Notes: generated by a model from the letters alone, not told the origin. A stretch of 64,000 bases of DNA from an uncultured Acidobacteriaceae bacterium (GCA_963718985.1 CAVRAQ010000028.1:5048-69047); one strand, 5' to 3'; shown: positions 361 to 16,960, numbered from the stretch's first letter. Numbers and translations are program-made.

Positions 361-3300
361 TTAGTTGCTGCTTCCAGCCGCGGCAATCGGCAAACTACCG
401 ACTTGCCCAGCCGTCGTACCTATCCCTTGCACGGTAACTTTGCCCTGCCGGAATTCATCGCCTGCTTTTTGTATGGCTCGCAACAAAGCCGGCCAATCGT
501 CGGTGTTGGTGGCAAAGATGTTCGCGACCATGCGGCGGGTCAGATTGGGGACCAGAACGTTGAGCATCGCCGGAGCATAGCCCATTTCATCGGCGAGGCG
601 CGCCCAGTAAAGATTGCTGGATTCCCAGGATTCGCCAAAGAGCCGGTCATCAAACGCCCCAGAGGCGGGGAATATCCCCATGTTGAGCAGACTGCAGGCG
701 TTGCTTTGCGCCATGGCCAGGTGGGGTATGCCAAAGTCTTTCGAGAGCCGCTCCGGGTTGGTATTGGAGGGGTCCCGGCGGGCAAGATCTTCCAGTTCCC
801 GGCCGGCATTTCCCCAGCGATGCAACTCCCCGGGAGACTTTCTACGATATTCGGCAGCCAGAAAGAAAGTGTCTGCCGGTGGCATCTGGGGAATAAACGC
901 GGTGGCGCTGTCCGGCTGCCTCAGGGCCTGTTCGGTCTCTTCCAAACGCGCCGGCGACATGTGATCGGAGAGGATCCCCAATACTTCTTCTCTGAGTTGC
1001 GGGTCCGATGCCGAAGCGATCAGGAGTTCTTCGCCGACCCGTTGATAGAGCGCCGCGGCATGCATTTCGTCCTGCCGGATGCCCCACCAGCGCGGCAGTA
1101 CCGCGCCCACCAGGAGCTCGGGGACGGTCTCTTTCCAGATCAATGCCTGGACGTTCGCCGGGGCAATAAAGTCCTGTTCCATCGAAGCCAGCGCATAAGG
1201 CAGATCGGCGAGCGATCCCAGCAAATAAGCGCCGCCGCCCGCGGTTACGCCGATTCCGACCAACTCCGGAGCATCCCAGACGTGCTCGATGCCCTGCACC
1301 GATGTGGCCGAGAAGTCGTGGGAGCGAACGAAGAGTGGGTTGTTGTGCAGAACCTGGGCGCCGGGAGGCTCATAGTAGGCGTAATTCAAGCCCACCAGCG
1401 TATCCCTGAGAAAGGGAGTCAGACGGCCGCGCGCGGCTTCCAGTTGGGCCGGAGAGCTCGGAGAATGAAGAATCTTGGTCAGGTCGGTTCGTACCTGCAA
1501 CTCCGCGTGACGGCTGGTGTAAACGATCGGAGCCCAGGCCGCCTTTTCACTTCCCGTGAAGATGGGGCGGGGCAGCTCGAATTCCCGCAGGTCTGCCGCA
1601 AGCGGAAGCAGGCTGTCGCCGATGGCCGCTCCGTGCGCCATATCCTCCAGGCCATCGAAAAGGCCGAAGAGGGAGTCGAGGGAAACCAGGCGCTGGTCAT
1701 CCATTACGGTGCGGATTCTCCGCGCCAGTTCCTGGTGCGCGCGCCGGCCGGCCGCACTGTCCTGTGCGGGGCCGGCGAGTAAATCGACGACCTGGTCCTG
1801 GGTAAGGTGCAGGCTTCCTGAGGCCGCGCCCAGGATCGACTCTAGCGAGTCGCGGGCTGCGTCAAAAAGCTGGACCGGCGATGAAACTGCGGAAAAGGGC
1901 TGAACCGCGTTTTGCCATGATCGATTCAGGCCGGGGGTTGGAATCTGCCCCTGCCGCGCGAAGATCTGCCAGAGTCCGATATCGGCCTGAAAGGCGCCCA
2001 GTGCATTTGAGCGAAGTGCGGGGTTCGAGGTCTTGTCGATTCGATCCGCCGTATCCACAAAACGAGTGATCGATGCGTCGTCCAAAGACGGAAATTCGGC
2101 GAAAACCGGGTACCAGTTGCTGAATTCCGAGAACCTTTCGGCAAGTAGCCGCACAGTCCCATCAGACAGCTTGTCTCCCTCGGGTCTTCCGCTGTCAATT
2201 GCGGTCAGCACGAGATAAATCTGCAACGGGCTGGCGCTGCCTTCAGCAGCCGAAGAGGCTACCAACGCCCCCAGCAACTGCTCCGGGGTATCCACAGCCC
2301 GGTTGCTTTTTGTCCAAGTGCGCACGCTGTTTGACTCGTACTTGCGGTTCAGGATCTCCTCCCAGACCTGCAGATTCCCTGGGACCCGAGGCTCGCCGTT
2401 GGCCTGCCATTGCAGGCGAGTCAAGAGCACCAGGAGCCCTGCGTTCCTTGGGAAGACACTTGCCGCCGCGGCGGTGTGAGAGTAATTGGCGGCTGAGCGG
2501 TAGGCCTCGTAGAGACTCTTGAGGCGAGTACCTTCAACCAGGTGGCTTTGCTGCGTTGAGCCGGCACGCGACACAGCGTCAAAATATGCCGCCAGCCAGC
2601 CTTGATCCTTCGCCAGCAGATGGGTGACGAACTCTCCCGGCGACTTCGGACTGGCTCCTACCAGTTCCCTCCAGGCTTGCTCTGCACCCGCTCCGCCGGG
2701 CACTTTCACTTCGCCGGAGCGAATGCTGATCCAGCTGCCATAGAAGTCAAGCTCAGCCGCATAGGGAAGCAGTCTGCCCAGCCCGGTTGACCGCATCAGG
2801 GCAAGCCTCGTTTGCCCATCGCTTCTGGCCAGGGCCGAATAGAGGCGGCCCACATTCCGGTCGTGCAGCAGGACATCGAGGAGATCTCTTCTATCGCTCC
2901 TCTTCAATGTGCTGAGCGAAGTCCATGCTTTTTCAGAGAACAGGACCGGGACCCGTGTAGCGGGAAACGCATAGGTAAACGGAGTGCCTCTCTGGAGGGC
3001 CTTTTCAAGCGCCGTCAGCGGGAAGCCCGAGTCGATGGTGAGGAAGGCGCGCTCCGCGTCGGCCGTCATCAGGCTGGCGCCGTCGGGTCCGCACCCCTGC
3101 TGAAACTGGTATCCAAGAATCTGAATCAGCCGGTTTACATCGCCGCAACCCCCAACCCGGATAATGCCGTCAGCACCCGCCAGGGAATGAAGCTCCCGGG
3201 CCAGTTGCACATACCGTTCGACCAGCAGCAGGAACTCAGTCGGTTTGTCCTGCGTGTAGCCCCACAGTGAAACATTGCGAGCCAGCATCGGCATCACATC

Positions 3301-3537
3301 GGAGGGGGAGATCTCCTGGCTGATGCCGGTCATGCGCAGGAAGGAGCGCAGCGGGCCCGGAATCACAACCATATCCCCCGATGAGGATGGCGGCGAAGCA
3401 TCCGCGGTAGCTTCTACGCGCGTGTTGGCGGGTGAAGAGTCCGGTTGCGGCGTTTTGCCCGCGCCTGCGGCGAAACACGCTTCCATGCACAGAAGCCCCG
3501 CTGCAAATGCAGCGAGAGAACGAAGAGGAGGGTTCAT
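361..3537 (-). CDS. Large secreted hypothetical protein (1058 aa)
   Basis: Long ORF with N-terminal signal peptide and GGAAGGGG upstream; co-directional with and abutting the VWA gene; no recognisable catalytic motif. Confidence 0.85.
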   Translation of the reverse strand: MNPPLRSLAAFAAGLLCMEACFAAGAGKTPQPDSSPANTRVEATADASPPSSSGDMVVIPGPLRSFLRMTGISQEISPSDVMPMLARNVSLWGYTQDKPTEFLLLVERYVQLARELHSLAGADGIIRVGGCGDVNRLIQILGYQFQQGCGPDGASLMTADAERAFLTIDSGFPLTALEKALQRGTPFTYAFPATRVPVLFSEKAWTSLSTLKRSDRRDLLDVLLHDRNVGRLYSALARSDGQTRLALMRSTGLGRLLPYAAELDFYGSWISIRSGEVKVPGGAGAEQAWRELVGASPKSPGEFVTHLLAKDQGWLAAYFDAVSRAGSTQQSHLVEGTRLKSLYEAYRSAANYSHTAAAASVFPRNAGLLVLLTRLQWQANGEPRVPGNLQVWEEILNRKYESNSVRTWTKSNRAVDTPEQLLGALVASSAAEGSASPLQIYLVLTAIDSGRPEGDKLSDGTVRLLAERFSEFSNWYPVFAEFPSLDDASITRFVDTADRIDKTSNPALRSNALGAFQADIGLWQIFARQGQIPTPGLNRSWQNAVQPFSAVSSPVQLFDAARDSLESILGAASGSLHLTQDQVVDLLAGPAQDSAAGRRAHQELARRIRTVMDDQRLVSLDSLFGLFDGLEDMAHGAAIGDSLLPLAADLREFELPRPIFTGSEKAAWAPIVYTSRHAELQVRTDLTKILHSPSSPAQLEAARGRLTPFLRDTLVGLNYAYYEPPGAQVLHNNPLFVRSHDFSATSVQGIEHVWDAPELVGIGVTAGGGAYLLGSLADLPYALASMEQDFIAPANVQALIWKETVPELLVGAVLPRWWGIRQDEMHAAALYQRVGEELLIASASDPQLREEVLGILSDHMSPARLEETEQALRQPDSATAFIPQMPPADTFFLAAEYRRKSPGELHRWGNAGRELEDLARRDPSNTNPERLSKDFGIPHLAMAQSNACSLLNMGIFPASGAFDDRLFGESWESSNLYWARLADEMGYAPAMLNVLVPNLTRRMVANIFATNTDDWPALLRAIQKAGDEFRQGKVTVQGIGTTAGQVGSLPIAAAGSSN

Positions 3538-4259: not shown

Positions 4260-5717
4260 CTATATCGCCGCGGCCGCGGAGTGGGAACCATGCCTTGAAG
4301 CGAGCGGAAGGGAAATTGTAATCCGGGCTCCGCCGCTCTCGCGATTCGAGGCTGCAACGGTTCCCCCATGGGCGCGCGCGACGGCATCGATAAATGCCAG
4401 ACCAAGCCCGTGCCCGTTCGAATCCCGCCCCTTCACCCTGCGCTCGAACAAATGGAGAAACACTTCGGGATCGAATCCTGGTCCGTCGTCTTCGAGGATC
4501 AACCGCGCGCTATCCTCTTCGCCCCGCAGTTCGATCGTGAGGCTACAGGCGGGCGGCAAGTGCTTCAGCTCATTGTCAAGGAGATTGGCGATCATGCGAT
4601 GGAGAAGCGCGGCATCGGCGGAGATCTCCACCGGGCCGCGGCTGCGCAGCGTTACCCGCAATCCTCTCTCCGACATGGAAGGTTCATAGAGATCGATCAT
4701 GACTCTGAGCAACTCGTTCAGATCGATGGCGCTGCGCGTAAGCCGAAGCGCATCCGCTTTGGCCTCGGCAACATCCAGCGACTTGTTGAGAAAGTCGGTG
4801 AGTCGATCCAGTTCCTCGATTGCCGAGACAATCGGTTCGGCCTGCTCGCCATCCGTGACTGTCGATAACGACATCTCGAGCTTTCCGCGAATTGCCGTCA
4901 GGGGGCTGCGCAAATCGTGAGCCAGCGAATCTGTGATGGTATGCAACTGGTGCATGGAACTCTCGATCCGGTCGAGCATGCGATTGAGAGTCAGGGCCAG
5001 GTGGCTGACCTCGTCGTTGCGTTTGGTGGTTGGCACTCTGGCGTCGAGATCGGAATGGCCAATTCTCGAAGCGGCTTCGGTAATCTCCCGGACGTGGCTC
5101 AACATGCGCCTGGTGGTGAGGAATACAATGCCGAACCCCAGCAGAACAATCAACAGCCACAACAGCAGAAAGCGCAGGCGCAGGCTCCAGAGCACCCGCC
5201 GCTCATCCCGCTCCGACAGGCCCAGAAAGATCTGGCTGCCATCCTCGATGCGGATTGAAGCCACGCGAAAGGGGACTGCGAATCCGGGGACACGCAGGTC
5301 GGTTGGCAGGTTCGGAGGGATCCTGCTGGCCTGAATTGCCTTCAGGTGGGCCTCGCCGCTGCCAGCGCCTACCCAAAGCTTGAGAGAGCCGTCCCCACCC
5401 GATTGAAGAAAGAAAACCGAATCGTTGGAATCGCTCTCTGAGGCCTGCTTGTCGGGCACCTCTCTGGCCGCCAGCTCCGCCACTTCTCCCACCACGCGGC
5501 CATAGAGGGCGTCGTTCGGTGTCCGCTCGGCCACATCGCCCAGCACCTCCACTTCGCCCGAAAGCCATGCATCGCTGCGGCGTTGAATATCGCCGGCGAC
5601 AAAATCTTGCAGAAAGACGAAGACCACCATGGTTCCGCACGCAAATGCAAGAGTTGCCCACAACGAAATGCGCCAGGCGGCGCTGCGCATGGTCGGCCTA
5701 TCGGTCTTTGAGGACAT
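4260..5717 (-). CDS. Sensor histidine kinase (2 TM, HAMP, HisKA, HATPase)
   Basis: H-box AHDLRSPL, N-box NLLDNELKH, G-boxes DDGPG and GHGLGL; overlaps the 3' end of the response regulator gene. Confidence 0.93.
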   Translation of the reverse strand: MSSKTDRPTMRSAAWRISLWATLAFACGTMVVFVFLQDFVAGDIQRRSDAWLSGEVEVLGDVAERTPNDALYGRVVGEVAELAAREVPDKQASESDSNDSVFFLQSGGDGSLKLWVGAGSGEAHLKAIQASRIPPNLPTDLRVPGFAVPFRVASIRIEDGSQIFLGLSERDERRVLWSLRLRFLLLWLLIVLLGFGIVFLTTRRMLSHVREITEAASRIGHSDLDARVPTTKRNDEVSHLALTLNRMLDRIESSMHQLHTITDSLAHDLRSPLTAIRGKLEMSLSTVTDGEQAEPIVSAIEELDRLTDFLNKSLDVAEAKADALRLTRSAIDLNELLRVMIDLYEPSMSERGLRVTLRSRGPVEISADAALLHRMIANLLDNELKHLPPACSLTIELRGEEDSARLILEDDGPGFDPEVFLHLFERRVKGRDSNGHGLGLAFIDAVARAHGGTVAASNRESGGARITISLPLASRHGSHSAAAAI

Positions 5718-6375
5718 AGCCCACACCTCGCATGGTTCGAATCAGCGGTTGCTGTCCTGCGCCGTCGACCTTGCCGCGCAGCCGGTAAATATGCACGTCG
5801 ACCACGTTGGTGTCCGGTTGAATGCGCATGCCCCACACCTTGTCCAGAATCATCGAACGCGTCACCACGCGTCCTGCATTCCTGCACAGATACTCGAGAA
5901 GGACGAATTCCTGCTGGGTCAGTTGCAGAATCTGTCCGCCGCGCGATGCCTCCCGCCGCAATAGATCCAGCTCAAGATCCAGCACCCGCAACCGCGTTGC
6001 CTCTCCGGCCGCCGGGCTGTTGCGCTTGAGCAGGTTGCGGAGGCGCGCCAGCAACTCTGCAAGCGCGAACGGCTTGGTCAGATAGTCGTCTCCGCCCTGT
6101 TCCAGCCCTCGCACGCGATCGTCGACTGATCGGCGCGCGGACAGAATCAGTACCGGAGCCCTCACGCCCAGTTGACGCAAGCGAAGAATCAAGCTGATTC
6201 CGTCCTGATCGGGCAGTCCAAGATCGACGATGAGTATGTCGAATGTGCCCTCGACCGCAAGCCGCTCGGCCGTTTTGCCGTCCGGCGCAGCTTCCACCTG
6301 GTACCCCGCTTCCTCAAGTGAACGCCGCAGGAAACTCTGAATATCGATTTCGTCTTCAACGAGCAGAAGGCGCAT
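5698..6375 (-). CDS. OmpR/PhoB-family response regulator (resembles CusR/CzcR heavy-metal subgroup)
   Basis: LLVEDE, DLGLP, GGDDYLTKPF receiver motifs; winged helix TNVVDVHIYRLRGK...IRTMRGVGY. Confidence 0.95.
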   Translation of the reverse strand: MRLLLVEDEIDIQSFLRRSLEEAGYQVEAAPDGKTAERLAVEGTFDILIVDLGLPDQDGISLILRLRQLGVRAPVLILSARRSVDDRVRGLEQGGDDYLTKPFALAELLARLRNLLKRNSPAAGEATRLRVLDLELDLLRREASRGGQILQLTQQEFVLLEYLCRNAGRVVTRSMILDKVWGMRIQPDTNVVDVHIYRLRGKVDGAGQQPLIRTMRGVGYVLKDR

Positions 6376-6464
6376 GAAGCGATATTAGTGCATCTGCATT
6401 GCTTTTTTCGAGCGCGCCCCTCTGGTTTCACTCTCTCAGTCCCGGAAGCGGCTGCTATTTTTGC

Positions 6465-6484
6465 CAAGATGAACGTGATGTCAT
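6465..6484. promoter_or_regulatory. Putative response-regulator operator, copy 1 (CAAGATGAA-N6-GTCAT)
   Basis: Imperfect palindrome ATGAA-N6-GTCAT, repeated at 6655-6674 in the same divergent intergenic region. Confidence 0.45.
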
Positions 6485-6654
6485 CTGGGCGTTCACTCTC
6501 AGTCATCTCTCTTCACTACCATTAGACGCAGGTTCCATGAAAACCCCACGCGACTATTCCGCGCGAGCGGACGGAGAACCTATGGGAATGGCCGCGGCTT
6601 CATCACACTCTGCAGGTTTCCTCTTTCGCCACGCAACGCGTTGTACCGTCCCGT

Positions 6655-6674
6655 CAAGATGAAGGAAACGTCAT
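6655..6674. promoter_or_regulatory. Putative response-regulator operator, copy 2 (CAAGATGAA-N6-GTCAT)
   Basis: Same 9+5 nt arms and same spacer length as 6465-6484. Confidence 0.45.
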
Positions 6675-6818
6675 GGAAACAAGCTTGATTACGCGCTTTC
6701 CAAAGCGTGCCTGAATTCGTCTCACCAGTGAATTGAAACCCGCGGTGCCGTGGTTGTTACGCGACCCGGTTTTCCTGCACAAAGTAACCGCCCTATCCAA
6801 ACGATATCGAGGATCAAA

Positions 6819-7764
6819 GTGTATTCGGCGAACGTCATGGATCAATTGGACACGAGTTTTCTTGCGCAAGCTTTCAGCACCTTTCTTTCGCTGCCGGCGG
6901 CTCTCGATCCCAACTTCGAAGATCGCGCTTCGTCATGTGCTCGACAACCCCGGAAGCCTGGTTCGCCCAAAGCTGGTTTTTCAAATGGCGACTGCGTACG
7001 GACTGGATCCTGCTCAAGCCCAGGAACTCGCCATCGCGCTCGAGTACTTCCACACCGCTTCTCTTCTGTTCGACGACCTGCCCTGCATGGACAATGCGCT
7101 GGAACGGCGCGGCGCTCCCTGCACTCATCTCGTATTCGGCGAGGAAGGCGCCATCCTTACCGCGCTTGCTTTGATCAATCGCGCTTACGCGCTCACCTGG
7201 CGCGCTGTTGCAGGCTGCCCGCGGGACCAGACAGGCCCGGGCACTCGACTTCATCGAGCATTGTCTTGGCGTGGAAGGGCTGCTCAACGGGCAAAGCTTC
7301 GACCTCCATTACTCAACTTTGCCCCGCACGCTGGAGACAACCGAACGCATTGCCCGCGGCAAGACGGTTTCGCTGATCCGGCTTACGCTGGTGTTGCCGG
7401 CCATGCTGGGCGGAGCTTCGGCCCGCGAACTCCAGCAGATCGAGCGGATCTCGGTATTCTGGGGCCTCGGTTATCAGATCGTGGATGACCTCAAGGATGT
7501 GCTTCAGAGCTCAGCGCAAACCGGAAAGACCCCGGCCCGCGACGTGGTGCTGGACCGCCCGAACATCGCGGCGGTCATCGGAATTCACGGCGCCGTTCAG
7601 CGCCTCACGCGGTTGATCGATCTCGGAGACAGAGTGCTGCGCAGCCTTCTCGCTTCACGGCCCGGAACTCGACTTCCTGGAGAGACTGCGCGGCGAACTC
7701 CAGGAGAGAGCTTGCCCGGGTTACACGGGATTCCTGCGTGCTGGCGGAGAAAGGCGGGCTGTGA
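6819..7764 (+). CDS. Polyprenyl diphosphate synthase (trans-IPPS, CrtE/IspA-like); frameshifted in this sequence
   Basis: FARM HTASLLFDDLPCMD...RRG (frame of 6733 ORF); GQSFD, KT and SARM YQIVDDLKD (frame of 7208 ORF); N-terminus in frame of 6750 ORF. Apparent shifts near 6925, 7230 and 7665-7720. Likely ends at the GTGA overlap with the next gene. Confidence 0.85.
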
Positions 7765-8876
7765 TCTTTCTCAAGTTGATTCTGACCAACCTGCGCCGCC
7801 ATCGCATCCGCTCGCTGATCAGCGTGGCCGGAATCGCCTTCAGCGTAGCGGCAATGCTGACTGTAGTCACGATTCTGCAGGGCGCCGATCGGCATGTTCT
7901 CCGGCATTCTCTCCAACGACAGCGAGATCATCGTCTTCGAGCGCGACGTCTCCGACCTTTTCTTCAGCAACGTTCCCGCGGACGCGGCTGCGCAGATTTC
8001 CAGCTTGGCCGATCGTGGCTCACGCGAACCCGGTGTTGTTCGGAATCGTCTCCAGCGCCGGTCACCCGATTATCACCTGTTTTGGGGTGACTGCCTACGG
8101 ACGCGCGCATTCAAAAGGCATCGTGGCTCGAAGGCGATCGCGGCAGTTTTGCGCAACGTGCCGATGACGTGGTGCTGGGCGCGCGCGCAGCCGAGTTTCT
8201 CTCCGCAGCTCTCGGCAGCCAGGTTCAGATCGGACATGGAACATTCCACGTCATCGGCGTGCTGAAGACGGCCAACGGCTTTGAGGATGGCGGAGTCTTC
8301 ATGCCGCTCGCTTCCGCGCAGTCCTTCTTTCACAAGCAGGGAACTTCCTCGGTGATCACGGTCAAACTGCGCAATAAAGACGATGCCGCCGCTTTCAAGA
8401 ACATGGTCAGAGCGAAGTATCCGAACCTGATCGCACTGGAAGATGCGGAGTTTACACGCTCCTATTCGCAGTTCAGGATTCTCAAGGCCACGGCCTGGGC
8501 GGTTGGTGGTTGCGGCCTGCTGCTCGGCGGACTGGGAGTGGCGAACACCATGATCATGTCGGTGTTCACGCGCATCCGCGAGATCGCGATTCTCCGCGTC
8601 AACGGATTTTCTCAAATGCAGATTGGAGGAGTGATCTTCGGCGAGTCCGCGGTTGTGTCGGTTTCCGGCGCAGTGACTGGACTGCTGGTTGGAACCTGCT
8701 TTCTGTACGCGCTCAAGCTGATTCCCGCTCTTGACGGATACGTCGACCCAACCATTCATCCGCTCCTCATGCTGGTTGTGCTGGTGCTGGCCTTGCTTAC
8801 CGGAATCGCGGGCGCCCTCTATCCGGCTGTCTACGCCATGCGGATTCGCGCGGTGGAGGCGCTTCGATTCGAATGA
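7761..8876 (+). CDS. ABC transporter permease, MacB/FtsX/LolE-like; frameshifted in this sequence
   Basis: NLRRHRIRSLISVAGIAFSVA N-terminus, periplasmic segment, C-terminal FtsX motif NTMIMSVFTRIREIAILRVNG...YPAVYAMRIRAVEALRFE; pieces in ORFs 7761, 7894, 7208(end) and 8169. Confidence 0.88.
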
Positions 8877-9577
8877 GACTCGCGTTTGAAAGCAATGGAA
8901 ACCGGCGCATCGTTTTGCGCGCGGAGAATTTATGGAAGAGCTACGACGAGGGGACAGTTGCGGTTCTCAAGGGCATGGATTGCGAGGTCTCCGCGGGCCA
9001 AACGGTGGCTCTTTGCGGACCTTCGGGCTGCGGCAAGAGCACGCTGCTGCACCTCTTCGGCGGGCTCGATATGCCCGACCGCGGGCGAGTCTCGGTCAAC
9101 GGCGTTGAAGTCAACCGGCACTCGAACCTGCTGCGCCTTCTGCGCCACGAGGTTGGCTTCGTCTTTCAACTTCACAATCTGATTCCCGACCTGACTCTCG
9201 CGGAAAACTGTCTCATCCCCACTGTTGCCGCGGGGATTGACGGCCGCACCGCAAAGGCGCGTTTGGTGGAACTCGCGGAGCGCACCGGGCTCAGCCATCG
9301 GCTCGGCCATCGCATCCAGAAACTCTCCGGCGGAGAACGCCAGCGCACGGCGCTCTGCCGCGCTCTGATGAACAGGCCGAAGATCCTGCTGGCCGATGAG
9401 CCGACCGGCTCGCTCGATGAGCAGGCCAGCAACGTGGTCTTCGATCTCTTGCTTGACCTGGTGGCCACCGAGGGCGCAACCCTGCTGATGGCCACGCACG
9501 ATCGCAGTCTTGCCGGGCGCTGCGACCGCCTTGTGGAGATGCACGATGGAAAGATCCATGAGCACGCACACGCTTGA
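8873..9577 (+). CDS. ABC transporter ATP-binding protein, LolD/MacB-like
   Basis: Walker A GPSGCGKS, LSGGERQR, ILLADEPTGSLD, ATHD; ATGA overlap with the permease gene. Confidence 0.95.
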   Translation: MRLAFESNGNRRIVLRAENLWKSYDEGTVAVLKGMDCEVSAGQTVALCGPSGCGKSTLLHLFGGLDMPDRGRVSVNGVEVNRHSNLLRLLRHEVGFVFQLHNLIPDLTLAENCLIPTVAAGIDGRTAKARLVELAERTGLSHRLGHRIQKLSGGERQRTALCRALMNRPKILLADEPTGSLDEQASNVVFDLLLDLVATEGATLLMATHDRSLAGRCDRLVEMHDGKIHEHAHA

Positions 9578-10895
9578 CCGGATGGAATCGCCGCGCCAAC
9601 ATCCGCGGGCCGTCGCCTGCGCCGCATGGCACAGCCTTTTTTGGCTTGTCTTTGCCAACTCCGTGGGCGTACTGATCGCGATTCTGCTGCTGGTTCCCGC
9701 TCTCAACCGGCAATTGGGCGAGTGGACTTACGGCCGCTGGATGATGGTGCACATGAATCTGGAGCTCTACGGCTGGGCCAGCCTTCCACTGGTGGGATTT
9801 CTCTTCAGGGTCTACGGCGCGGACCGCGGACCGGTCGCAGATTGGTGCCGGCCGGTGCTCTGGGTCTGGTCCGCCTCCCTCGGCGTCGCCGTATTCTCCT
9901 GGCTCTCCGGACATTCCAGCGGCAGGCTCTTCCTCGACTGGAGCGGATACCCACGCGTGCTGTTTCCCGGTGCGCTTCTGGCGCTTTGGCTGCTTCTGGT
10001 CTTCGCCCTGGTCGGAAGCCGGAGCAATTCGGAGCATACAAACGTGACTGCCTGGGCGGCGAAGCTGCTCGGCCTTGTGATTCTGCTCGCTGTCCCATTT
10101 CTCATTTACATCGCCTCGGGACCCGGCACCTATCCTCCGGTGAATCCCGATTCAGGTGGCCCGACATGCGCAAGCCAGTTGGAATCCTCGCTGGCCATCG
10201 TCGCTGTCCTGCTGATGCTTCCCTTCGGGATTGCACACCGCAAGCCGGCGAAAACCAGAATCGTCTCCATCGCCTGGATCGTCCTGGCCGCGGAATCTAT
10301 CCTCTGCGTCGCGCTGGGCCGCGCCGACATAAGCCATCACAGCCCGGTGCAGTTTCTCAGCCTAAGCAGCCTTCTCCTGTGGTTGCCGCTTACGCCCGCA
10401 TACTATGCGGCATTCGCCTGGCACCAAAGCACCCGCCGCTGGCAATTGGCTTTCCTCTGCTGGTGGTCAGCTCTAGTAGCCACTGGCTGGGTCTTCTTTC
10501 TTCCCGGAGTCCTCGACCACTTCAAATTCACCGACGGCCTGGTCGGTCACTCCTTCATCGCCATGGCAGGATTCACGTCGAGCCTGATCATCTTCGTCAT
10601 GGTGCAACTTCTGGGCGAGGGTGGATGGATCTTCAATCGGACGCGATCCTTTTATCTATGGAACGGCAGCGTCATCGCCTATGTCGTGCTGATGACCGTG
10701 GCCGGCTGGCGCGAGGGCTTCGACCCAACCTTCACCATCGTGCCGGGCATCGCGCGCAACGTCCTCTATGCTCTCCGCCTCGTTACCGGAATCCTGATGC
10801 TCCTTGCCTCATTCGACTGGCTCGTCGATGCGTCAACGCTGCTTCGCGAACCTGTCGCCGCTTCCATTGAAATTCCACAGGAGGAGACAGCATGA
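9558..10895 (+). CDS. Divergent CcoN-like (cbb3 heme-copper oxidase subunit I homolog) membrane protein with an incomplete His-ligand set
   Basis: About 12 TM. TYGRWMMVHMN resembles CcoN TFGRLRPLHTN; DHFKFTDGLVGHS resembles HYTDWTIGHVH; MTVAGWREG and YALRLVTG match the CcoN C-terminal helices; HH present in ISHHSP. Confidence 0.7.
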   Translation: MSTHTLDRMESPRQHPRAVACAAWHSLFWLVFANSVGVLIAILLLVPALNRQLGEWTYGRWMMVHMNLELYGWASLPLVGFLFRVYGADRGPVADWCRPVLWVWSASLGVAVFSWLSGHSSGRLFLDWSGYPRVLFPGALLALWLLLVFALVGSRSNSEHTNVTAWAAKLLGLVILLAVPFLIYIASGPGTYPPVNPDSGGPTCASQLESSLAIVAVLLMLPFGIAHRKPAKTRIVSIAWIVLAAESILCVALGRADISHHSPVQFLSLSSLLLWLPLTPAYYAAFAWHQSTRRWQLAFLCWWSALVATGWVFFLPGVLDHFKFTDGLVGHSFIAMAGFTSSLIIFVMVQLLGEGGWIFNRTRSFYLWNGSVIAYVVLMTVAGWREGFDPTFTIVPGIARNVLYALRLVTGILMLLASFDWLVDASTLLREPVAASIEIPQEETA

Positions 10896-11302
10896 ACCGT
10901 CCCATTCTCATCGGTTATCAGTTGCTGACCGGATTCTCCGATGCCTCAACCGGTGCGTTGCTCCTGCTTGCGCCGGCACTTACGCTGCGCCTGATGCATT
11001 TGCAGGCGCCTTCCGACGCGCTGATCTACAACTCGTTCATCGGCGCATTCGTTTTGTCGGTGGGTTTTGCCTGCCTCTACGGCGCCTACCTCGCATTTCA
11101 CGGCGGCTGCCGCACAAAGCTTGAAATGGTGTGGCTGCTCACAGCCCTCACCCGCGCCAGCGTCGCCATCTTTGTTGTCGGGCAAGTCCTGGTCGGCACG
11201 CTTGAAGCCGGCTGGTTGACCGTAGCGGCTGCTGACGGCGCATGTGTTCTGATTCAGGCGATTGGCTTGCGCAAGGAATGGTTGGCCCGTGCCGCGCGCT
11301 AA
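10892..11302 (+). CDS. Small 4-TM hypothetical membrane protein
   Basis: 136 aa, four hydrophobic segments, GGAGGAG RBS, ATGA overlap with the upstream gene. Confidence 0.8.
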   Translation: MNRPILIGYQLLTGFSDASTGALLLLAPALTLRLMHLQAPSDALIYNSFIGAFVLSVGFACLYGAYLAFHGGCRTKLEMVWLLTALTRASVAIFVVGQVLVGTLEAGWLTVAAADGACVLIQAIGLRKEWLARAAR

Positions 11303-13181
11303 CAGCGGCAGTTCCGGCTGGCAAGGCGCGAGCCTTGTCGCGATCGCGTATGTCTATTTCCTCATCTTCGCTCAGTTCGCATTCCTGAAGCGCCTGGCGA
11401 GCCTGGGCGTAGCCGACGCGCATCTGAATGCCATGATGGCGGCAATGGCCGGCGGCGGAATCCTCCTCAGCCTGCTGGCGCCGCGGATGAGCCTGTGGCC
11501 CTCGGCGAGCCTGCGCCTCCGCATTGCGCTCTTTGCTTCAGGCGCCGCGGCATTCCTCGCGCTTCTTCCGCTCGGCTTCGCCGCTGCCGTGGCCGTATCC
11601 TTCCTCATCGGCGCGGGTCTCGGGCTGCTCACCGTCACTCTGGCCACGCACCTGCGCCGATTCGCCGGCACTCGCAACCCGCTCCTCGCCGTCGCCGTGG
11701 GGACGGGCACAGGCTATCTTGTCTGCAATCTGCCGCGCTTCTTTACCGCCTCGGCTGAAGTGCAGGCATTTTCGGCGGGCATTCTGTGCCTGGCAGGAAT
11801 TGGGATCACTCTTCTGCCTCCGCCCTCGCCGTTTGAAGCGCGTAGCATCGGTCCTCAATCGGCGATCTCTTTTTATCGTGTGCTCGCCGGCTTCACCGCT
11901 CTTGTGTGGCTGGACTCGGCCGCCTTTTTCATCATCCAGAACACCCCGGCACTGAAGGCCGGAACCTGGCAGGGCACATTTCATCTTTGGGCAAACGGTC
12001 TGCTGCATCTTGCCGCGGCCCTCACCGGCGCATGGTTCCTGCGCCGCAGAGGTCTCTCGCCGGTTCTCACCGCCGCCTACCTCGCGCTCGCCATGGCTTG
12101 TTTGCTCCTGCTCCATCCTGACCGCGCACTGCAGGCTTCCGTCTTCTATCCCATCGGCGTCTCGCTCTACTCCGTCGCACTGGTCGCGTATCCATCCCTC
12201 CTCGCTCCCGCTGCTTCCGCCCGGGAGCGGGGCCGAATGGCAGGATGGATTTACGCGATTGCCGGCTGGACGGGCTCTGCGATGGGCATCGGCATGGGCC
12301 GGAATCTAGGCCATGTGCCCCTTGTCTTTGTCGCCGCTGCCGGCGCGGTTGTCCTGCTGCCTCAACTTATTACGGCCTTTCGCCGGCGCTCTCGTGAGCT
12401 TGCGCTCACCGCCCTCGTGATTCTCGCGGCCTTCTCTCTCCATCGGTTTCTTCACGCGTTGGATGCGGTTCCGCAACTTACTCAAGTAGAACGCGGACGC
12501 AGGGTCTACATCTCCGAGGGATGCATTCACTGCCACTCCCAATATGTGCGGCCCAATTCCCCTGACGTACTCATGTGGGGCCCGGTCGAATCCATCTCGG
12601 AGTTGCGCAGTGAACATCCGCCGCTCATTGGCAATCGCCGCCAGGGTCCCGACCTCTCTGAAGTTGGAATGCGCCGCTCGGCCCTGTGGATCAAGGCACA
12701 CTTCTACAATCCCGCCGAGGTCAGCGGCTCCTCCATTATGCCCTCCTATGAATTCCTATTCCGCGACCAGCGCGGGGACGATCTTGTCGCGTATCTCGAA
12801 AGCCTGCGCGGAACAGGCGCAGCGCAACAACTTGCGGAGGAAAGGCTCTGGCAGCCCTCAGCCGCCGCCGTCGCCCAAGCCAATGCAGTCGAAGGAGAAC
12901 GGCTCTACTTGCGCGACTGCGCCAACTGCCACAGCGCGGATGGCCCTACGCGCCGCGCCTGGCAATCGAGCTACAAGCGCCTCCCTCCGGATCTCGCCAA
13001 GGGCCCCTGGCTTTATCTGCCGTCTTCAGATTCCCTTGAGCAGCGCATGGTGCGCCTTGCGCAGATTACCAAGTTCGGCATCCCCGGAACCGACATGCCG
13101 GGACACGAATATCTGTCCGACAGTGACCTCGCCTCTATCAGTCTTTGGTTGTCGCAAGACATCGCGCAATCGAATCGATAA
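11289..13181 (+). CDS. Fusion protein: polytopic (MFS-like) membrane domain + CcoO-like cytochrome c + second cytochrome c domain
   Basis: About 400 aa hydrophobic N-terminal part; GRRVYISEGCIHCHSQYVRP...GNRRQGPDL...HFYNP...SIMPSY (CcoO/FixO signature); C-terminal LYLRDCANCH...GIPGTDMP. Confidence 0.85.
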   Translation: MPRANSGSSGWQGASLVAIAYVYFLIFAQFAFLKRLASLGVADAHLNAMMAAMAGGGILLSLLAPRMSLWPSASLRLRIALFASGAAAFLALLPLGFAAAVAVSFLIGAGLGLLTVTLATHLRRFAGTRNPLLAVAVGTGTGYLVCNLPRFFTASAEVQAFSAGILCLAGIGITLLPPPSPFEARSIGPQSAISFYRVLAGFTALVWLDSAAFFIIQNTPALKAGTWQGTFHLWANGLLHLAAALTGAWFLRRRGLSPVLTAAYLALAMACLLLLHPDRALQASVFYPIGVSLYSVALVAYPSLLAPAASARERGRMAGWIYAIAGWTGSAMGIGMGRNLGHVPLVFVAAAGAVVLLPQLITAFRRRSRELALTALVILAAFSLHRFLHALDAVPQLTQVERGRRVYISEGCIHCHSQYVRPNSPDVLMWGPVESISELRSEHPPLIGNRRQGPDLSEVGMRRSALWIKAHFYNPAEVSGSSIMPSYEFLFRDQRGDDLVAYLESLRGTGAAQQLAEERLWQPSAAAVAQANAVEGERLYLRDCANCHSADGPTRRAWQSSYKRLPPDLAKGPWLYLPSSDSLEQRMVRLAQITKFGIPGTDMPGHEYLSDSDLASISLWLSQDIAQSNR

Positions 13182-13214
13182 CCATAACCGCTCATTGCAC
13201 TCAGGAGAAGAACC

Positions 13215-13793
13215 ATGAAGACGTACGCACAAGCCCTCTTCCTCGCCATCCCGCTCGCGATTGCCCCTGTCGCGCTCGCACAGCATCAGACCTTCCATGT
13301 CAATCCGGACGCCAGCCAGGTCGCCTTCGCCTTGGGCGGCAGCGGCCACCACGTGCAGGGAACATTCCATGTGCAGAGCGGATCGATCGACTTTGACCCC
13401 GGCGCACAGAAGATCTCCGGCTTCGTGGTCGTCGCGGCCGGCAGCGGCAACAGCGGCGAACCGAGCCGCGACAAGAACATGAACGCCAATGTCCTGGACA
13501 CCGATCACTTTGCCCAGGTGACCTTCGCGCCCAACAGCTATCAGGGAGCCATTGCGCCCTCGGGTGATTCCACCATCCAGGTTTCCGGCATCTTTACGTT
13601 GCACGGTACGCCTCATGACCTTACAGTTCCCATGCAAATTCATATCGATGGCGCGAATTTGACCGCCAGGGGACACTTCACGGTTCCCTACGTCAAGTGG
13701 GGTCTCAAAGATCCCAGCATCTTTGTCCTGAAAGTGGCCAAGGACGTTGATATCGACCTGACTCTGAGCGGTCAGCTAACCCGCGGGAACTAG
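13215..13793 (+). CDS. yceI: YceI-family periplasmic lipid/polyisoprenoid-binding protein
   Basis: Signal peptide; VxGxF, SGNSGEPSRD, FTLHGTPH and DVDIDLTL beta-barrel motifs; AGGAG RBS. Confidence 0.88.
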   Translation: MKTYAQALFLAIPLAIAPVALAQHQTFHVNPDASQVAFALGGSGHHVQGTFHVQSGSIDFDPGAQKISGFVVVAAGSGNSGEPSRDKNMNANVLDTDHFAQVTFAPNSYQGAIAPSGDSTIQVSGIFTLHGTPHDLTVPMQIHIDGANLTARGHFTVPYVKWGLKDPSIFVLKVAKDVDIDLTLSGQLTRGN

Positions 13794-13823: not shown

Positions 13824-13855
13824 GGGTGCCCCAGGTCTCGATTTTGAGACCTGGG
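13824..13855. repeat. REP-like palindrome
   Basis: GGGTGC followed by a perfect 10-bp stem CCCAGGTCTC-GATTTT-GAGACCTGGG, between convergent genes. Confidence 0.6.
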
Positions 13856-13892
13856 AAAGCGCGAACCCAAGATGCCAATTCACGCGGTCAGA

Positions 13893-13934
13893 GACAAAGG
13901 GCCGAGGCGCTTCATCGCGCCCCGGCCCTTTGTC
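13893..13934. terminator. Probable bidirectional intrinsic terminator
   Basis: GACAAAGGGCCGAGGCGC-loop-GCGCCCCGGCCCTTTGTC hairpin between convergent yceI and TonB-receptor genes. Confidence 0.65.
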
Positions 13935-13951: not shown

Positions 13952-16900
13952 TCAGAACGAGAATGCAGCCTGGATGAAGATGCGCCGTGCTGCCGAACCG
14001 GACGAGAACATTCCGTAGGCCAGGCTGGTCGATTGGCCAAAATTCGGCGAGTTCACGGTTCCGATCGGTTGTCCACGATCAATGTCGTTGAACAGGTTCA
14101 ACGCCTGGGCGCTGAAGCTGAGCGAGTATTTGTGGCCGGTGCTGGCGCTGCCGCCCATCATTCCCCGGCCGCCTCCACCAAATCCACCGCCAAATCCGCC
14201 GCCTCCGAAGCCTCCGCGCCCGCCGCCGCCGCCACCGCCCGGGGGTGGACCACCGCCAGGGCCGCCGGGGCCACCGCCGCTATTCGAGCCGCTCGCCGAC
14301 TCAAGTTTGGGTCCCAGCCCGAAGGCGCGGCTGACGCGCAGATTCATGGCCACGGCAGCCGGCCCGTGGCCCATGTTTCCCGGAATGATCGTCTCTCCAG
14401 GCTGGGGAATGGTATCGAAGCAGCCAAAAGCAGTCTGCACGTACTGCGTTGAAGATGCTGTGCAATCGGAGGCATTAACGATCGATGGACGGTCGTTGAA
14501 GAAGTTGTCACCAGTCAAATCGTTGGGAGAAACAAAATTGTAGGGACGGCCCGATTGCGCAATGAGAAAAGGGTTGAATGTGATGCCCAGCGGGCCGGCG
14601 TAATTGCCCATCAGAAAGACCATGTTGCGCGAGGCAAAGCCGGCCGGGCGGTAGTCCTGCATCAGGTTGTAGGAGTTTGATGCCGTACCCGTGTCGGAGT
14701 TGGCCCAGGTCAGGTTGTAGAAACCTGACAGCCCCAGGTTGGGCGTCAGGCGTGCGTTGATATTCGCGATGAACTGGGTCTGCTTGAAGACTGCCTGGGA
14801 GTCGTACTGCTCCACGATGCCCAGCGAGGGATTGGGCCGCACTCCGGTCAATGTGGAACTGCCATACAGGAAAGTCCCGGGCAGATAGGCATTCGAGTCG
14901 CGCGTGACCATCTGATGAACGCCATAGCTGCGCAGATAGGTAAAGGAGAGCGACGTTGTTTTAGTCAACTGGCGCTCCAGGCTCGTTGAAAACTGCTCGG
15001 TATAGGGGGAGTGATAGGTGGGCGTGACCTGGATGATCGTCTTCGCATTGGCGCTGGCCGGTCCGCACGTAGACAGGTTGATTGCGCTCAGACTCGTGGC
15101 GCTGAAGCATGTGGGATTTGTGATCGTGTTCTGCGTCTGGCTGTCGGCGCCGCCGCTGTAGCGCGCTATGTTCAGCAGGTTGCCCAGTCCGAAGCGATCG
15201 TAGAAGAAACCATACCCGCCGCGCAGCACGGTCTTGGCTTGTGCGCGGTTCTTGTGGCCATCGAGCGCATAGGCGAAGGCAACCCGCGGACCCCAGTCGT
15301 CGTGATCCGCAACGTGATTCTGTGACTCCCAGCGCAGGCCCCCCGATAGAGTCAGGTTTGCGTTGGCCTTCCAGTCGTCCTGCACAAACAGCGCGCCGTC
15401 GAACACGCTTCTCACCACGGCCGCGGCGCCGGTAGTGTAGTTGAGCTTGTTGGGCAGGCCGCCGGCTGCGGCAATTTGTGAAAACGTCTCGCCCGCGGCA
15501 AGGCCGTTCATCATGATGACGTACGCATTCAGCGAGGGAAAGCTGAAGCTGCCGTTGAAATTGGCGCTTGACGAGTTGGCGTCGCGATTGTAGCGCAGGC
15601 GCGTTCCGAACTTGATGGCATGTGCGCCTGCCGACATGGTAGTCAGGTTCTGCAACTCAAGGTGATCCGTGTGATCGTTGGAGCGTTGGCCGGAAGATCC
15701 GCCGCTCGTAAAGGATCCCGGTACCGAGATGGTTGGCGTGGTGCTCGCGGGTGTTGAGGAGCTGAGGTCGCGAAGATACTGGAACCTCGTTTCGTTCACC
15801 ATGTGTTCGTTGATGGTCTGCGAATCGCTAAGTTGAAGGGTGTGCTCGACAAAGTCTGAAGTCGTGGACTGCGATGGCAGTTGCAGTGACCCGATCCCCC
15901 CGCTCTGGTTGTAACGCTCATATTGGTAGCGCAGCGTGAGCGTGTTCTTCTGCCCCAGTTGGATATCGACGCGCGGCGAAACTTCGGTATGAGTTGAGGG
16001 GTTGAAGAGTCCGCCCGATACGGTTCCCGCGCCGTAGGTATTGGTTGCCGGATTCAAAACCGCCGTGGTCACTGTGTAGATGCTCGCGTTCTGGTTGTCG
16101 CGCTCATCCACGCTGATAAAATACGAAGCGGATTTTGAGATGGAACCGCTGATTGAGCCGTTGTACTGGATGCTGTGGTACGCGGGAATGGCAGTAGTGA
16201 ACGGGTTGCCGGTGTTGAAGGCGTCGTCGTTGCCCTGGGCAAAGAATCTCCCATGCAGTTGGTCGGTTCCGGGTTTGGTCAGAATCTCGATGCGCCCGTA
16301 GCCCAGGTGGTCGAACTCGGCCGAGAAGGGGTTCTGGTTGATGCGAATCTCGCGAATCGCCGACTTGGGGGGAAGTTGCCCGCCAGTGAATCCTGAGATG
16401 TAAACTTCTCCGCCGTTGGGTCCCGCCGCGGGACCGGCCAGAGCCGTCAGTTCGTTTGACAGTTCGTCGGGATCGTCTGAAAGTGCATCCAGGTCCTTGT
16501 CCTTGAGGACCACGGAGCTGGTGTTGCCGCTGGCCTCTACACTCACCATGGGCGCTTCCTCGTCGGAGACCGTCACACTCTGCTGCGCCACCACCATGGC
16601 CAGGGAGATGTCGACGTGCTTCACCTGCCCGGCCGCAACCTGGATGGCAGGCGAAGAAGCTGGAGCGAAGCCCGCGAACACCGCCGTTATGACGTAGCCG
16701 CCGGGCGCCAGCCCGTTCACTGCATACGCGCCCGTGGAGTCGGAGGTAGTAGTAGTCACGGCCGCTCCCGCCGTAGTGGTCACAGTAATCTTCGCCCCGG
16801 GAATCAACGCGCCCGTGGGGTCGGCAATGTGCCCGCGCACAGAAGCTGGCGCTGCGGCCGCCGTTCGTGCGGGAGCCTGAGCGTGCGCAGCGGCCACACT

Positions 16901-16960
16901 AGCCAGGCCCAGCGCCAAAGCAACCAGAAAGCGAATAAAGCAATGCAATTTTAAGTACAC
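13952..16960 (-). CDS. Oar-type TonB-dependent receptor with carboxypeptidase-regulatory-like N-terminal domain
   Basis: Signal peptide, GxxxDPTGAxIPGAxxT domain, NPFSAEFD plug region, FVQDDWK and LSGGLRWE barrel motifs, C-terminal Phe. Confidence 0.9.
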   Translation of the reverse strand: MYLKLHCFIRFLVALALGLASVAAAHAQAPARTAAAAPASVRGHIADPTGALIPGAKITVTTTAGAAVTTTTSDSTGAYAVNGLAPGGYVITAVFAGFAPASSPAIQVAAGQVKHVDISLAMVVAQQSVTVSDEEAPMVSVEASGNTSSVVLKDKDLDALSDDPDELSNELTALAGPAAGPNGGEVYISGFTGGQLPPKSAIREIRINQNPFSAEFDHLGYGRIEILTKPGTDQLHGRFFAQGNDDAFNTGNPFTTAIPAYHSIQYNGSISGSISKSASYFISVDERDNQNASIYTVTTAVLNPATNTYGAGTVSGGLFNPSTHTEVSPRVDIQLGQKNTLTLRYQYERYNQSGGIGSLQLPSQSTTSDFVEHTLQLSDSQTINEHMVNETRFQYLRDLSSSTPASTTPTISVPGSFTSGGSSGQRSNDHTDHLELQNLTTMSAGAHAIKFGTRLRYNRDANSSSANFNGSFSFPSLNAYVIMMNGLAAGETFSQIAAAGGLPNKLNYTTGAAAVVRSVFDGALFVQDDWKANANLTLSGGLRWESQNHVADHDDWGPRVAFAYALDGHKNRAQAKTVLRGGYGFFYDRFGLGNLLNIARYSGGADSQTQNTITNPTCFSATSLSAINLSTCGPASANAKTIIQVTPTYHSPYTEQFSTSLERQLTKTTSLSFTYLRSYGVHQMVTRDSNAYLPGTFLYGSSTLTGVRPNPSLGIVEQYDSQAVFKQTQFIANINARLTPNLGLSGFYNLTWANSDTGTASNSYNLMQDYRPAGFASRNMVFLMGNYAGPLGITFNPFLIAQSGRPYNFVSPNDLTGDNFFNDRPSIVNASDCTASSTQYVQTAFGCFDTIPQPGETIIPGNMGHGPAAVAMNLRVSRAFGLGPKLESASGSNSGGGPGGPGGGPPPGGGGGGGRGGFGGGGFGGGFGGGGRGMMGGSASTGHKYSLSFSAQALNLFNDIDRGQPIGTVNSPNFGQSTSLAYGMFSSGSAARRIFIQAAFSF

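Follow-up and report, generated by a model that had tools for sequence, protein, structure and literature searches.

Why should a bacterium keep a prenyl diphosphate synthase, an ABC transporter of the MacB type, subunits resembling those of a cbb3 oxidase and a YceI-family protein in one operon? This question is raised by a locus in a 64,000-nucleotide stretch of DNA from an uncultured Acidobacteriaceae bacterium (GCA_963718985.1, CAVRAQ010000028.1:5048-69047; the whole stretch is called the window below). A preliminary description of the locus, made from the sequence alone, had suggested that the operon handles an isoprenoid lipid or prenylated cofactor rather than respires. In this work, we have followed the locus through other genomes, structure models and the literature. 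The results make it probable that it is a non-respiratory module, in which the handling of an isoprenoid lipid is coupled to haem redox. The more detailed reading developed below, i.e., a regulated non-respiratory envelope module with a lipid half and a redox half coupled to each other, is given a probability of about 50%. The parts of the module all come from known superfamilies, and its core is a variant of the cbb3 scaffold.

Seven co-directional genes lie on the + strand at 6837–13793, and a two-component system is encoded divergently upstream of them, both as the preliminary description had it. The features of the locus are as follows.

4260–5726, − strand: sensor histidine kinase (HAMP, HisKA and HATPase_c domains); best NCBIfam match in the CztS/SilS/CopS subfamily, under the cut-off of that family
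5698–6375, − strand: OmpR-type response regulator; best match in the CztR/SilR/CopR subfamily (231 bits against a cut-off of 279)
6376–6836: divergent intergenic region of 461 bp, the presumed promoter/operator for both transcription units
6837–7764, + strand: short-chain trans-prenyl diphosphate synthase (IspA/CrtE-like; Pfam polyprenyl_synt), broken by insertions at 6924, 7226, 7659 and 7707
7761–8876, + strand: MacB/LolCE-type ABC permease (MacB_PCD and FtsX), broken by insertions at 7885, 8004 and 8096
8873–9577, + strand: ABC ATPase, LolD/MacB-like (ABC_tran, 2.4e-35)
9546–10895, + strand: predicted CcoN-like 12-helix haem protein, 449 amino acids (aa), assigned by fold and profile alignment; Pfam none
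10892–11302, + strand: orphan membrane protein of 136 aa with about four helices, conserved in position; Pfam none
11262–13181, + strand: MFS-like::CcoO::cytochrome c fusion, 639 aa (Pfam FixO 2e-29, Cytochrom_C 1.9e-12)
13215–13793, + strand: periplasmic YceI-family lipocalin-like protein with a signal peptide (Pfam YceI 9.4e-20)
13829–13934: two GC-rich hairpins (~13829–13855 and ~13893–13934) in the spacer between convergent genes, probable terminators

The junctions read in the sequence agree with the overlaps reported before. The permease gene stops at 8876 and the ABC gene starts at 8873; the latter stops at 9577, with the CcoN-like gene starting at 9546. The CcoN-like gene stops at 10895 and the small gene starts at 10892, and the small gene in turn stops at 11302, inside the fusion gene that starts at 11262. 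After a 33-bp gap, yceI starts at 13215. At the first junction, the GTG start of the permease (7761) overlaps the TGA stop of the synthase (7762–7764) once the extra bases discussed later are removed. The unit had been drawn from 6819, but the synthase probably starts at the ATG at 6837. In the 158-bp convergent spacer 3' of yceI, two strong hairpins are found (−78 kcal/mol, z = −7.5, with 0 of 200 shuffles as good). A simple terminator scan did not flag them; they probably terminate the operon, in line with the terminator that had been placed there. A consensus promoter scan on the + strand of 6376–6836 gave nothing convincing.

Is this gene set kept together elsewhere? A pattern scan for the CcoN-like gene, with one genome per species, found 232 carriers, and the best 80 loci were examined. 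These best 80 of the 232 belong to Acidobacteriaceae, mostly Terracidiphilus metagenome-assembled genomes (MAGs) from peat, together with Edaphobacter modestus DSM 18101 and Granulicella. The order kinase–regulator / synthase–permease (FtsX)–ABC–CcoN-like–small–MFS::CcoO–YceI is kept in 80 of 80 loci as far as the contigs reach, and the full nine genes are present in 64 of them. Of 24 genomes sampled in the genus of the source organism, 8 have the CcoN-like gene, each time with the nine genes arranged in the same way, and a closed chromosome, evidently that of Acidobacterium capsulatum, keeps the order too. On a wider scale the protein is rare: among 400 sampled Acidobacteriota genomes, it is present in the genus and in two distant families. 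An exhaustive profile search collected 365 clusters at 50% identity, and for distant members the Atlas gives leads to Verrucomicrobiota and Chloroflexota.

Eight distant loci (30–45% identity, 34–72% GC) carry the CcoN-like, small, MFS-like and CcoO::c parts together, in shuffled order. Where the contig is long enough, they also have YceI, an exporter, usually a two-component system and, L109 excepted, a Pfam-recognised prenyl synthase; YceI is found in every complete locus, near or distant. The exporter is a MacB-type ABC transporter in L102, L105, L108 and L110. In L019, L103, L104 and L109, an MMPL/RND pump with a domain of the sterol-sensing type replaces the MacB-type ABC pair. Judged from gene content, the swap appears as a non-orthologous displacement within one functional slot. 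Since the MMPL pump stands in the same slot as the ABC pair, this is the strongest computational argument for lipid export, and it strengthens the earlier proposal that the transporter extracts a lipophilic substrate. The proposed functional linkage of the synthase, the ABC pair, the haem genes and YceI is likewise borne out by the order kept in 80 of 80 loci and in the eight same-genus genomes, and by the recurrence of the parts in distant loci. That is, the gene-neighbourhood check suggested at the outset finds the homologues of the CcoN-like and fusion proteins syntenic with an exporter and YceI wherever the contig suffices, and with the synthase as well except in L109.

The next question is whether the CcoN-like protein can still work as an oxidase. 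Neither a Pfam search nor a phmmer search against PDB sequences gave a match for it. A single-sequence AlphaFold2 model was unusable (predicted local distance difference test, pLDDT, of 47), and an alignment of 89 sequences was used instead, which yielded a 12-helix model with a pLDDT of 92. In Foldseek, the top matches of this model are cbb3 CcoN chains (E ~1e-8, template modelling (TM) score 0.65–0.68), followed by NorB, and hhalign aligns the protein to genuine acidobacterial CcoN with a probability of 96.6%. The ligand positions, read from this alignment and from the 89 family sequences, are as follows.

Helix-2 His: H69 in the window protein; invariant in the 89 sequences
Helix-6 CuB His: falls in an 8-residue deletion in the hhalign alignment; deleted in 89 of 89
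Helix-7 HH pair: H264 and H265 in the window protein; the H264 position is His in 59 of 89 and Asn in 27 of 89, the H265 position is His in 37 of 89
Cross-link Tyr: no counterpart in the window protein or the family; the CcoN Tyr is aligned by hhalign to a non-aromatic position
Helix-10 first His (high-spin haem): H335 in the window protein; invariant in the 89 sequences
Helix-10 second His (low-spin haem): Phe337 in the window protein; His in 81 of 89, and Phe, Leu or Ile in the window's clade

In short, the protein has the fold of a cbb3 subunit I and lacks the set of three CuB histidines, the cross-link tyrosine and the bis-His ligation of the low-spin haem, which suits the term 'degenerate cbb3' used before. 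A conserved Tyr near the cross-link position was not found in the family either. At the former helix-6 site there is an invariant Gly-rich loop, YPP[IV]NPxSGG[AP]TGxS, and on helix 7 a variable His-rich motif is kept (consensus HGDxSHH; RADISHH in the window). As modelled, the protein is a C-family haem-copper-oxidase fold without the canonical CuB/Tyr site. The losses of the CuB His and the Tyr mean that canonical O2 reduction is not possible for it, and a separate by-eye remark on this gene in the preliminary description agrees with the ligand readout from hhalign and the family census. In the source genome, a genuine cbb3 oxidase was not found, and one canonical A-type oxidase is present. 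The cluster itself, to which the search for these genes was confined, holds no ccoQ or ccoGHIS, as had been noted, and it has one extra c-type haem domain instead of the dihaem CcoP.

Could the CcoN-like/CcoO pair still be a terminal reductase of O2, NO or N2O, with an unconventional site and with the lipid genes as accessories? A candidate identity would be the 'N2O red' family described as such in Murali et al. 2024 (PMC11214002). In fold and CcoO partner, the pair agrees with cbb3 and the cytochrome c-dependent nitric oxide reductase (cNOR), and the databases label the proteins as cbb3 subunits ('cbb3-type subunit I' for the CcoN-like protein in IMG, 'cbb3-type subunit II' for the fusion at NCBI). 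Moreover, both helix-10 haem ligands are present in 81 of 89 members, and the His-rich helix-7 motif is retained. According to Murali et al., NO can be reduced without a tyrosine, the ligand sets of other NOR families are altered, and the N2O-red family comprises 293 GTDB genomes, which is of the same order as the 232 species genomes here. However, no member retains all three metal-site histidines: one has been deleted throughout the family, and the other two are variable (Asn in place of H264 in 27 of 89), and the window's clade has lost the low-spin haem ligand as well. Subunit II matches CcoO models, not NorC, and no denitrification genes lie nearby in any locus seen. The transcripts of A. 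capsulatum drop at low O2 (see below), and the obligatory prenyl synthase, lipid exporter and YceI would be left unexplained. Overall, we regard a gas reductase as improbable.

The expression evidence comes from a locus that has been studied under the name of cbb3. The rows quoted from Trojan et al. 2021 (PMC8407424) give as 'cbb3' genes of A. capsulatum ACP_0885 (ccoN), ACP_0887 ('cco gene of unknown function') and ACP_0888 (ccoO). We have found that the published quantitative PCR primers for ACP_0885 match the closed 4,127,356-bp chromosome exactly, 338 bp apart as published, and that the primer sites lie inside the CcoN-like gene (GHSL at helix 10). Given the exact match and the 338-bp amplicon, ACP_0885 is a member of the family, and ACP_0885, ACP_0887 and ACP_0888 belong to the CcoN-like module; the operon on this chromosome reads YceI / synthase–permease (FtsX)–ABC–CcoN-like–small–MFS::CcoO. 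In the quoted rows, which cover ACP_0885 and ACP_0887 and leave out the values of ACP_0888, the two genes show 11–14 transcripts per million at 10 µM O2 and ~1 at lower O2, i.e., a drop of about 10-fold. Induction under O2 limitation, as expected of a cbb3 oxidase, is therefore absent from these rows, which concern the A. capsulatum orthologue only. Together with the ligand losses, this down-regulation supports the suggestion that the module does something other than respire.

Trojan et al. had no explanation for the disuse of the 'high-affinity oxidase' at low O2. A simple explanation is that the genes are of the CcoN-like, copper-site-less family, which is not such an oxidase. Microaerobic lifestyles have been proposed from the same annotations by Eichorst et al. 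2018, and surveys of Acidobacteria have inferred microaerobic, high-affinity respiration from cbb3 calls (PMC5900883). Public annotation, that is, mislabels the module as a cbb3 oxidase. In the full-text searches of the literature, a characterised counterpart of the assembled module was not found, which is consistent with the earlier statement that no characterised pathway has this composition; the cluster has been annotated and discussed as a cbb3 oxidase, and never characterised.

As to Terriglobus roseus KBS 63, its published ccoN primers match in no locus examined. The gene pattern of Terro_4248–4250 (N, unknown, O) is that of the A. capsulatum locus.

What do the other genes say about the lipid half? 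The synthase has both Asp-rich motifs (DDLPCMD and VDDLKD), and its two frame pieces score 70.7 and 47.5 bits with Pfam polyprenyl_synt. An intact orthologue has its best matches in the farnesyl diphosphate synthase subfamily, IspA and CrtE, none of them over the equivalog cut-off. The operon synthase is the third paralogue of its kind in the genome, besides two other prenyl synthase genes; its sequence suggests a short-chain (C15–C20) enzyme that would be dedicated to the module. The permease combines the MacB periplasmic core domain with FtsX, its best NCBIfam match is lolCE, and in distant loci it is intact at 370–371 aa. For the ATPase, the best NCBIfam match is LolD (2.2e-64, under its cut-off). 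The pair thus has the features of a MacB/Lol-type (type VII) ABC transporter, the permease being whole only with the record errors discounted. The YceI protein scores 71.9 bits in Pfam against a cut-off of 23.7, and its N-terminus, MKTYAQALFLAIPLAIAPVALAQ, is signal-like. A YceI protein of Thermus thermophilus is reported to hold a bound polyisoprenoid in its crystal structure.

On the redox side, the fusion protein consists of an MFS-like domain (about residues 1–370), a CcoO-type monohaem cytochrome c and a class-I cytochrome c, the last two making up the C-terminal third. Both CxxCH motifs and both Met ligand motifs of the CcoO::c part are invariant, so the electron input from the periplasm looks intact. 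The MFS-like domain is only weakly related to named families: Pfam MFS_1 matches 7 of 11 members (best 3.9e-6, all under the gathering score), MCT1 is matched with an E-value of 0.012, and the Atlas neighbours are MFS-like. The 136-aa protein, whose gene always lies between the CcoN-like and MFS::CcoO genes, has invariant Asp17, Thr20, Arg88, Asp115 and Gln122, and no Pfam or PDB relative was found for it. A complex prediction of YceI with the CcoN-like and CcoO::c chains returned 'no answer' with a score of 0.00, and is no evidence either way.

The way in which these parts are joined differs among the distant loci. In L105, L108 and L109, separate genes encode the MFS-like and CcoO::c parts, and in L019 the small protein is fused in frame to MFS::CcoO. 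A 1130-aa 'CcoN-like::MFS::CcoO fusion' (P0285, L102:8001-11393) was considered as Rosetta-stone evidence and rejected: an intact gene for the small protein lies inside it in the +1 frame, so that the long call is a read-through of an out-of-frame stretch. Apparent 'fusions' in the CcoN-like family need frame-by-frame checking.

Open frames of another kind, 880–960 aa long, occur in the Acidobacteriaceae genomes G462, G473, G491, G529 and G558 (one locus is L114). They match genuine CcoN at 28–31% identity and, by their sequence, are possibly CcoN-CcoO fusions of a third kind. G491 has both such a frame and the CcoN-like module.

What signal would the operon answer to? The kinase is the divergent neighbour in 64 of the 80 loci, i.e., in every one with a contig reaching so far, and the response regulator is 89–96% identical in six of the eight same-genus relatives and 73% in the other two. 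As listed above, kinase and regulator find their best NCBIfam matches in the CztS/SilS/CopS and CztR/SilR/CopR subfamilies. This would fit metal homeostasis, in which a metal reductase or transporter derived from cbb3 is switched on by a CusRS/CopRS-like system, with the MFS-like domain as a CcoA-like importer and the c-type haems as a cupric reductase. An MFS copper importer, CcoA, is indeed known in cbb3 biogenesis (PMC5829832), and the MFS-like domain has a conserved MxxM motif. Nevertheless, the scores of both regulators stay under the curated cut-offs (195 against 293 and 231 against 279), and among 73 orthologues the periplasmic sensor part of the kinase has no conserved His, Met or Cys. 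A CcoA-like HxxxM/MxxxM copper motif was sought in the MFS-like domain and rejected, the His beside MxxM not being conserved. Moreover, the regulator type is replaced by LytS/LytTR in L109, and the prenyl synthase, exporter and YceI find no explanation. We consider metal homeostasis very improbable.

The L109 locus (L109:7974-19486, a Logan contig of 36% GC) is peculiar in several ways. Its regulators are of the LytS/LytTR type instead of the OmpR type, its pump is of the MMPL kind, an extra 162-aa gene stands before yceI, and no Pfam-recognisable prenyl synthase is present. Upstream, it encodes a 301-aa protein with a weak futalosine-hydrolase-like match and a 346-aa 'SPL' protein.

Taking the two halves together, the envelope module, to which we gave about even odds, would work as follows. 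A dedicated synthase of the C15–C20 type would make an isoprenoid precursor in the cytoplasm, and the lipid would reach the outer leaflet of the inner membrane, possibly via the MFS-like domain. The MacB/Lol-type ABC extractor, or the MMPL pump in other lineages, would lift it out and pass it to the periplasmic lipocalin-like YceI, just as LolCDE passes lipoproteins to LolA. Meanwhile, the two c-type haems of CcoO::cytochrome c would accept electrons from periplasmic donors and hand them to the CcoN-like subunit with its haem(s) b, where the ligand of the high-spin haem is retained and a canonical CuB/Tyr site is absent. This haem site would most likely act on the lipid or on lipid-borne oxidants (peroxyl, hydroperoxide), and the two-component system would turn the operon on under some envelope signal. 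For the identity and route of the lipid, the haem and metal content, the reaction, the inducing signal and co-transcription, the scheme gives what we infer. An antioxidant mechanism specifically is put forward only tentatively. It is possible, though doubtful, that the module is an envelope machine of a kind not recognised before, in which a haem-copper-oxidase scaffold, now free of copper, has been repurposed for redox chemistry that involves or modifies an isoprenoid lipid exported to YceI and held there, e.g., as a cytochrome c-driven peroxyl/hydroperoxide reductase at the periplasmic face.

The same synteny evidence would also serve a biosynthetic explanation, in which the haem module is an oxygenase or oxidoreductase that tailors the prenyl lipid in transit (hydroxylation, desaturation), and ABC/MMPL and YceI deliver a specialised isoprenoid to the envelope or outer membrane. 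In this case, the invariant Gly-rich loop at the former helix-6 CuB site could be a site for the head group or substrate. A metallo-beta-lactamase-fold hydrolase of 267–314 aa lies beside the module in four of the eight distant loci (L102:3167-4111, L104:3551-4489, L108:16661-17464 and L109:13693-14550), with 'metal-dependent hydrolase' PRK00685 as the best NCBIfam match of the L108 copy. Going by its fold, this recurring hydrolase could process a phosphorylated head group, here a diphosphate; it is, however, absent from the Acidobacteriaceae version. In the quoted A. capsulatum rows, expression drops with O2 as it would for an O2-using tailoring enzyme, but no oxygenase is known among the haem-copper-oxidase relatives, and electrons from periplasmic c-type haems would be unusual in biosynthesis. 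In addition, the cluster is accompanied by a two-component system of the stress type, which is not a housekeeping arrangement. We find tailoring of the lipid rather unlikely.

Several points weigh against the non-respiratory lipid–redox module itself. The cluster has no gene of the kind (prenyltransferase, cyclase, phosphatase) by which the lipid could be defined. The His-rich helix-7 motif could bind a metal non-canonically, and catalysis on a small gas is conceivable. With the low-spin haem ligand lost in the window's clade, the assumed relay from c to b to b may fail as drawn. The kinase has its best match in a metal-sensor subfamily, and the low expression in A. capsulatum comes from one kind of condition only.

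Finally, is the operon intact in the source genome? The gene set described before is real, yet the first two genes are not open reading frames as written, and seven frameshifts had been overlooked. The synthase runs through frames 0, 1, 2, 0 and 1 and the permease through frames 0, 1, 2 and 0; the polyprenyl_synt match is spread across two frames, and no more than the C-terminal half of the permease fits in a single open reading frame. With so many frameshifts inside 1.2 kb, one could think that the operon is decaying and that its first two genes are pseudogenes. We have compared the window with its closest relative, the MAG G017 (~80% DNA identity), and have found seven extra single bases (at 6924, 7226, 7659, 7707, 7885, 8004 and 8096) and zero deletions. 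That is, all seven are +1 insertions, and after their removal no in-frame stops are left. The repaired synthase has 307 aa and is 86% identical to the G017 orthologue; the repaired permease has 370 aa, and its frame from stop to stop shares 87% identity with the G017 counterpart across 391 aa. Both identities are at the level of the intact neighbour genes.

In addition, near-identical short-read contigs from four independent peat/soil metagenome runs lack one base at six of the seven sites or no more than a few bases away, in at least three runs each. At site 6924, the listed rows come only from the more divergent X4 contig, and the spanning X1–X3 contigs show a matching number of gaps. Since the extra bases are absent from near-identical DNA in four public runs, the seven breaks are read as assembly or record errors, not pseudogenisation, and decay of the operon is scarcely credible. 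The source genome consists of 29 contigs with a completeness of 88%. The one canonical COX1 gene in it (the A-type oxidase, G000:C9:238451-239781) is split over two frames, and a yceI paralogue (G000:C17:260810-261309) has in-frame stops and a frame change. These observations point to indel errors across the whole assembly, and other 'pseudogenes' of this genome should be distrusted. The G017 MAG, whose contig names in the survey suggest long reads, has an error of the same kind in its ABC gene.

The genes that flank the locus at 361–3537 and 13952–16960 were considered as parts of the unit and rejected, as these neighbours are not conserved. The former (− strand, downstream of the kinase) encodes a protein of 1058 aa whose N-terminus resembles a signal peptide and for which Pfam has no family; a homologue is present in 1 of 83 related loci (L038). 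The latter (− strand) encodes a 1002-aa outer-membrane barrel of the TonB-dependent type with an N-terminal carboxypeptidase-regulatory-like domain, and near its C-terminus there is an unusual Gly/Pro-rich run of ~40 residues, GGGPGGPGGGPPPGGGGGGGRGGFGGGGFGGGFGGGGRG.

If a copper-free scaffold has really been repurposed here, some of the proteins that pass for 'cbb3 oxidases' in counts from Acidobacteriota, Verrucomicrobiota and other soil bacteria would not be oxygen reductases. The ACP_0885–0888 genes of A. capsulatum, one of the two loci studied as cbb3 in Trojan et al. 2021, are of this copper-site-less family. The module, which hundreds of abundant bacteria of peat and soil have conserved, joins YceI proteins, dedicated extra prenyl synthases and haem-copper relatives without an oxidase site in one testable unit, and some of its carriers are in culture (A. 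capsulatum, Edaphobacter modestus DSM 18101 and possibly Granulicella).

How does the module compare with known systems? With the cbb3 CcoN/CcoO(/CcoP) oxidases (PDB 3MK7, 6XKW, 8SMR, 9G6B), it shares the 12-helix fold of subunit I at the TM-scores given above, the helix-2 His and the first helix-10 His, and a CcoO-type monohaem partner with a membrane anchor, while a further c-type haem domain replaces CcoP. It differs in the deleted helix-6 CuB His, the absent cross-link Tyr, the variable helix-7 HH pair and, in the window's clade, the lost low-spin His. Moreover, an MFS-like domain is fused to its CcoO, there is an additional orphan 4-helix subunit, and ccoQ, ccoP and ccoGHIS are absent from the cluster. 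The haem genes are embedded among lipid genes, and low O2 represses the A. capsulatum orthologue instead of inducing it. Compared by description only, the 'putative N2O reductase' family of Murali et al. 2024 (PMC11214002) is uncharacterised, tyrosine-less, of the C-family/cNOR branch and present in a few hundred genomes, all as in the module, but the subunit II of the module is CcoO-like, not NorC-like.

For the lipid half, the closest likeness is to LolCDE-LolA, where a type VII ABC transporter (an FtsX-family permease with a periplasmic domain plus a LolD-like ATPase) also stands beside a periplasmic beta-barrel carrier, and the pump has no membrane-fusion protein. In contrast to LolCDE-LolA, the module has one permease gene instead of two, its carrier is YceI instead of LolA, and the cargo is presumably an isoprenoid instead of an acylated protein. 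There is also a likeness to HpnN/MmpL-type systems, as the pump of the module can be replaced by one of the MMPL kind, which exports hopanoids or mycolates. Against all of these systems, the matches of the module are under the equivalog cut-offs.

For the coupling of the two halves, the best parallel is in Burkholderia, where the YceI-family lipocalin BcnA and the cytochrome b561 LcoA take part in the detoxification of lipid peroxyl radicals (PMC9113575). Both systems show a genetic link between a YceI-family protein, periplasmic or secreted, and a b-type haem protein of the membrane; both are tied to stress, and for both an action on membrane-lipid radicals is proposed. The likeness is one of function alone: the haem partner in the module is unrelated to cytochrome b561, which is absent from the cluster, and the module has, in addition, a prenyl synthase, a lipid exporter and a c-type haem input of its own.

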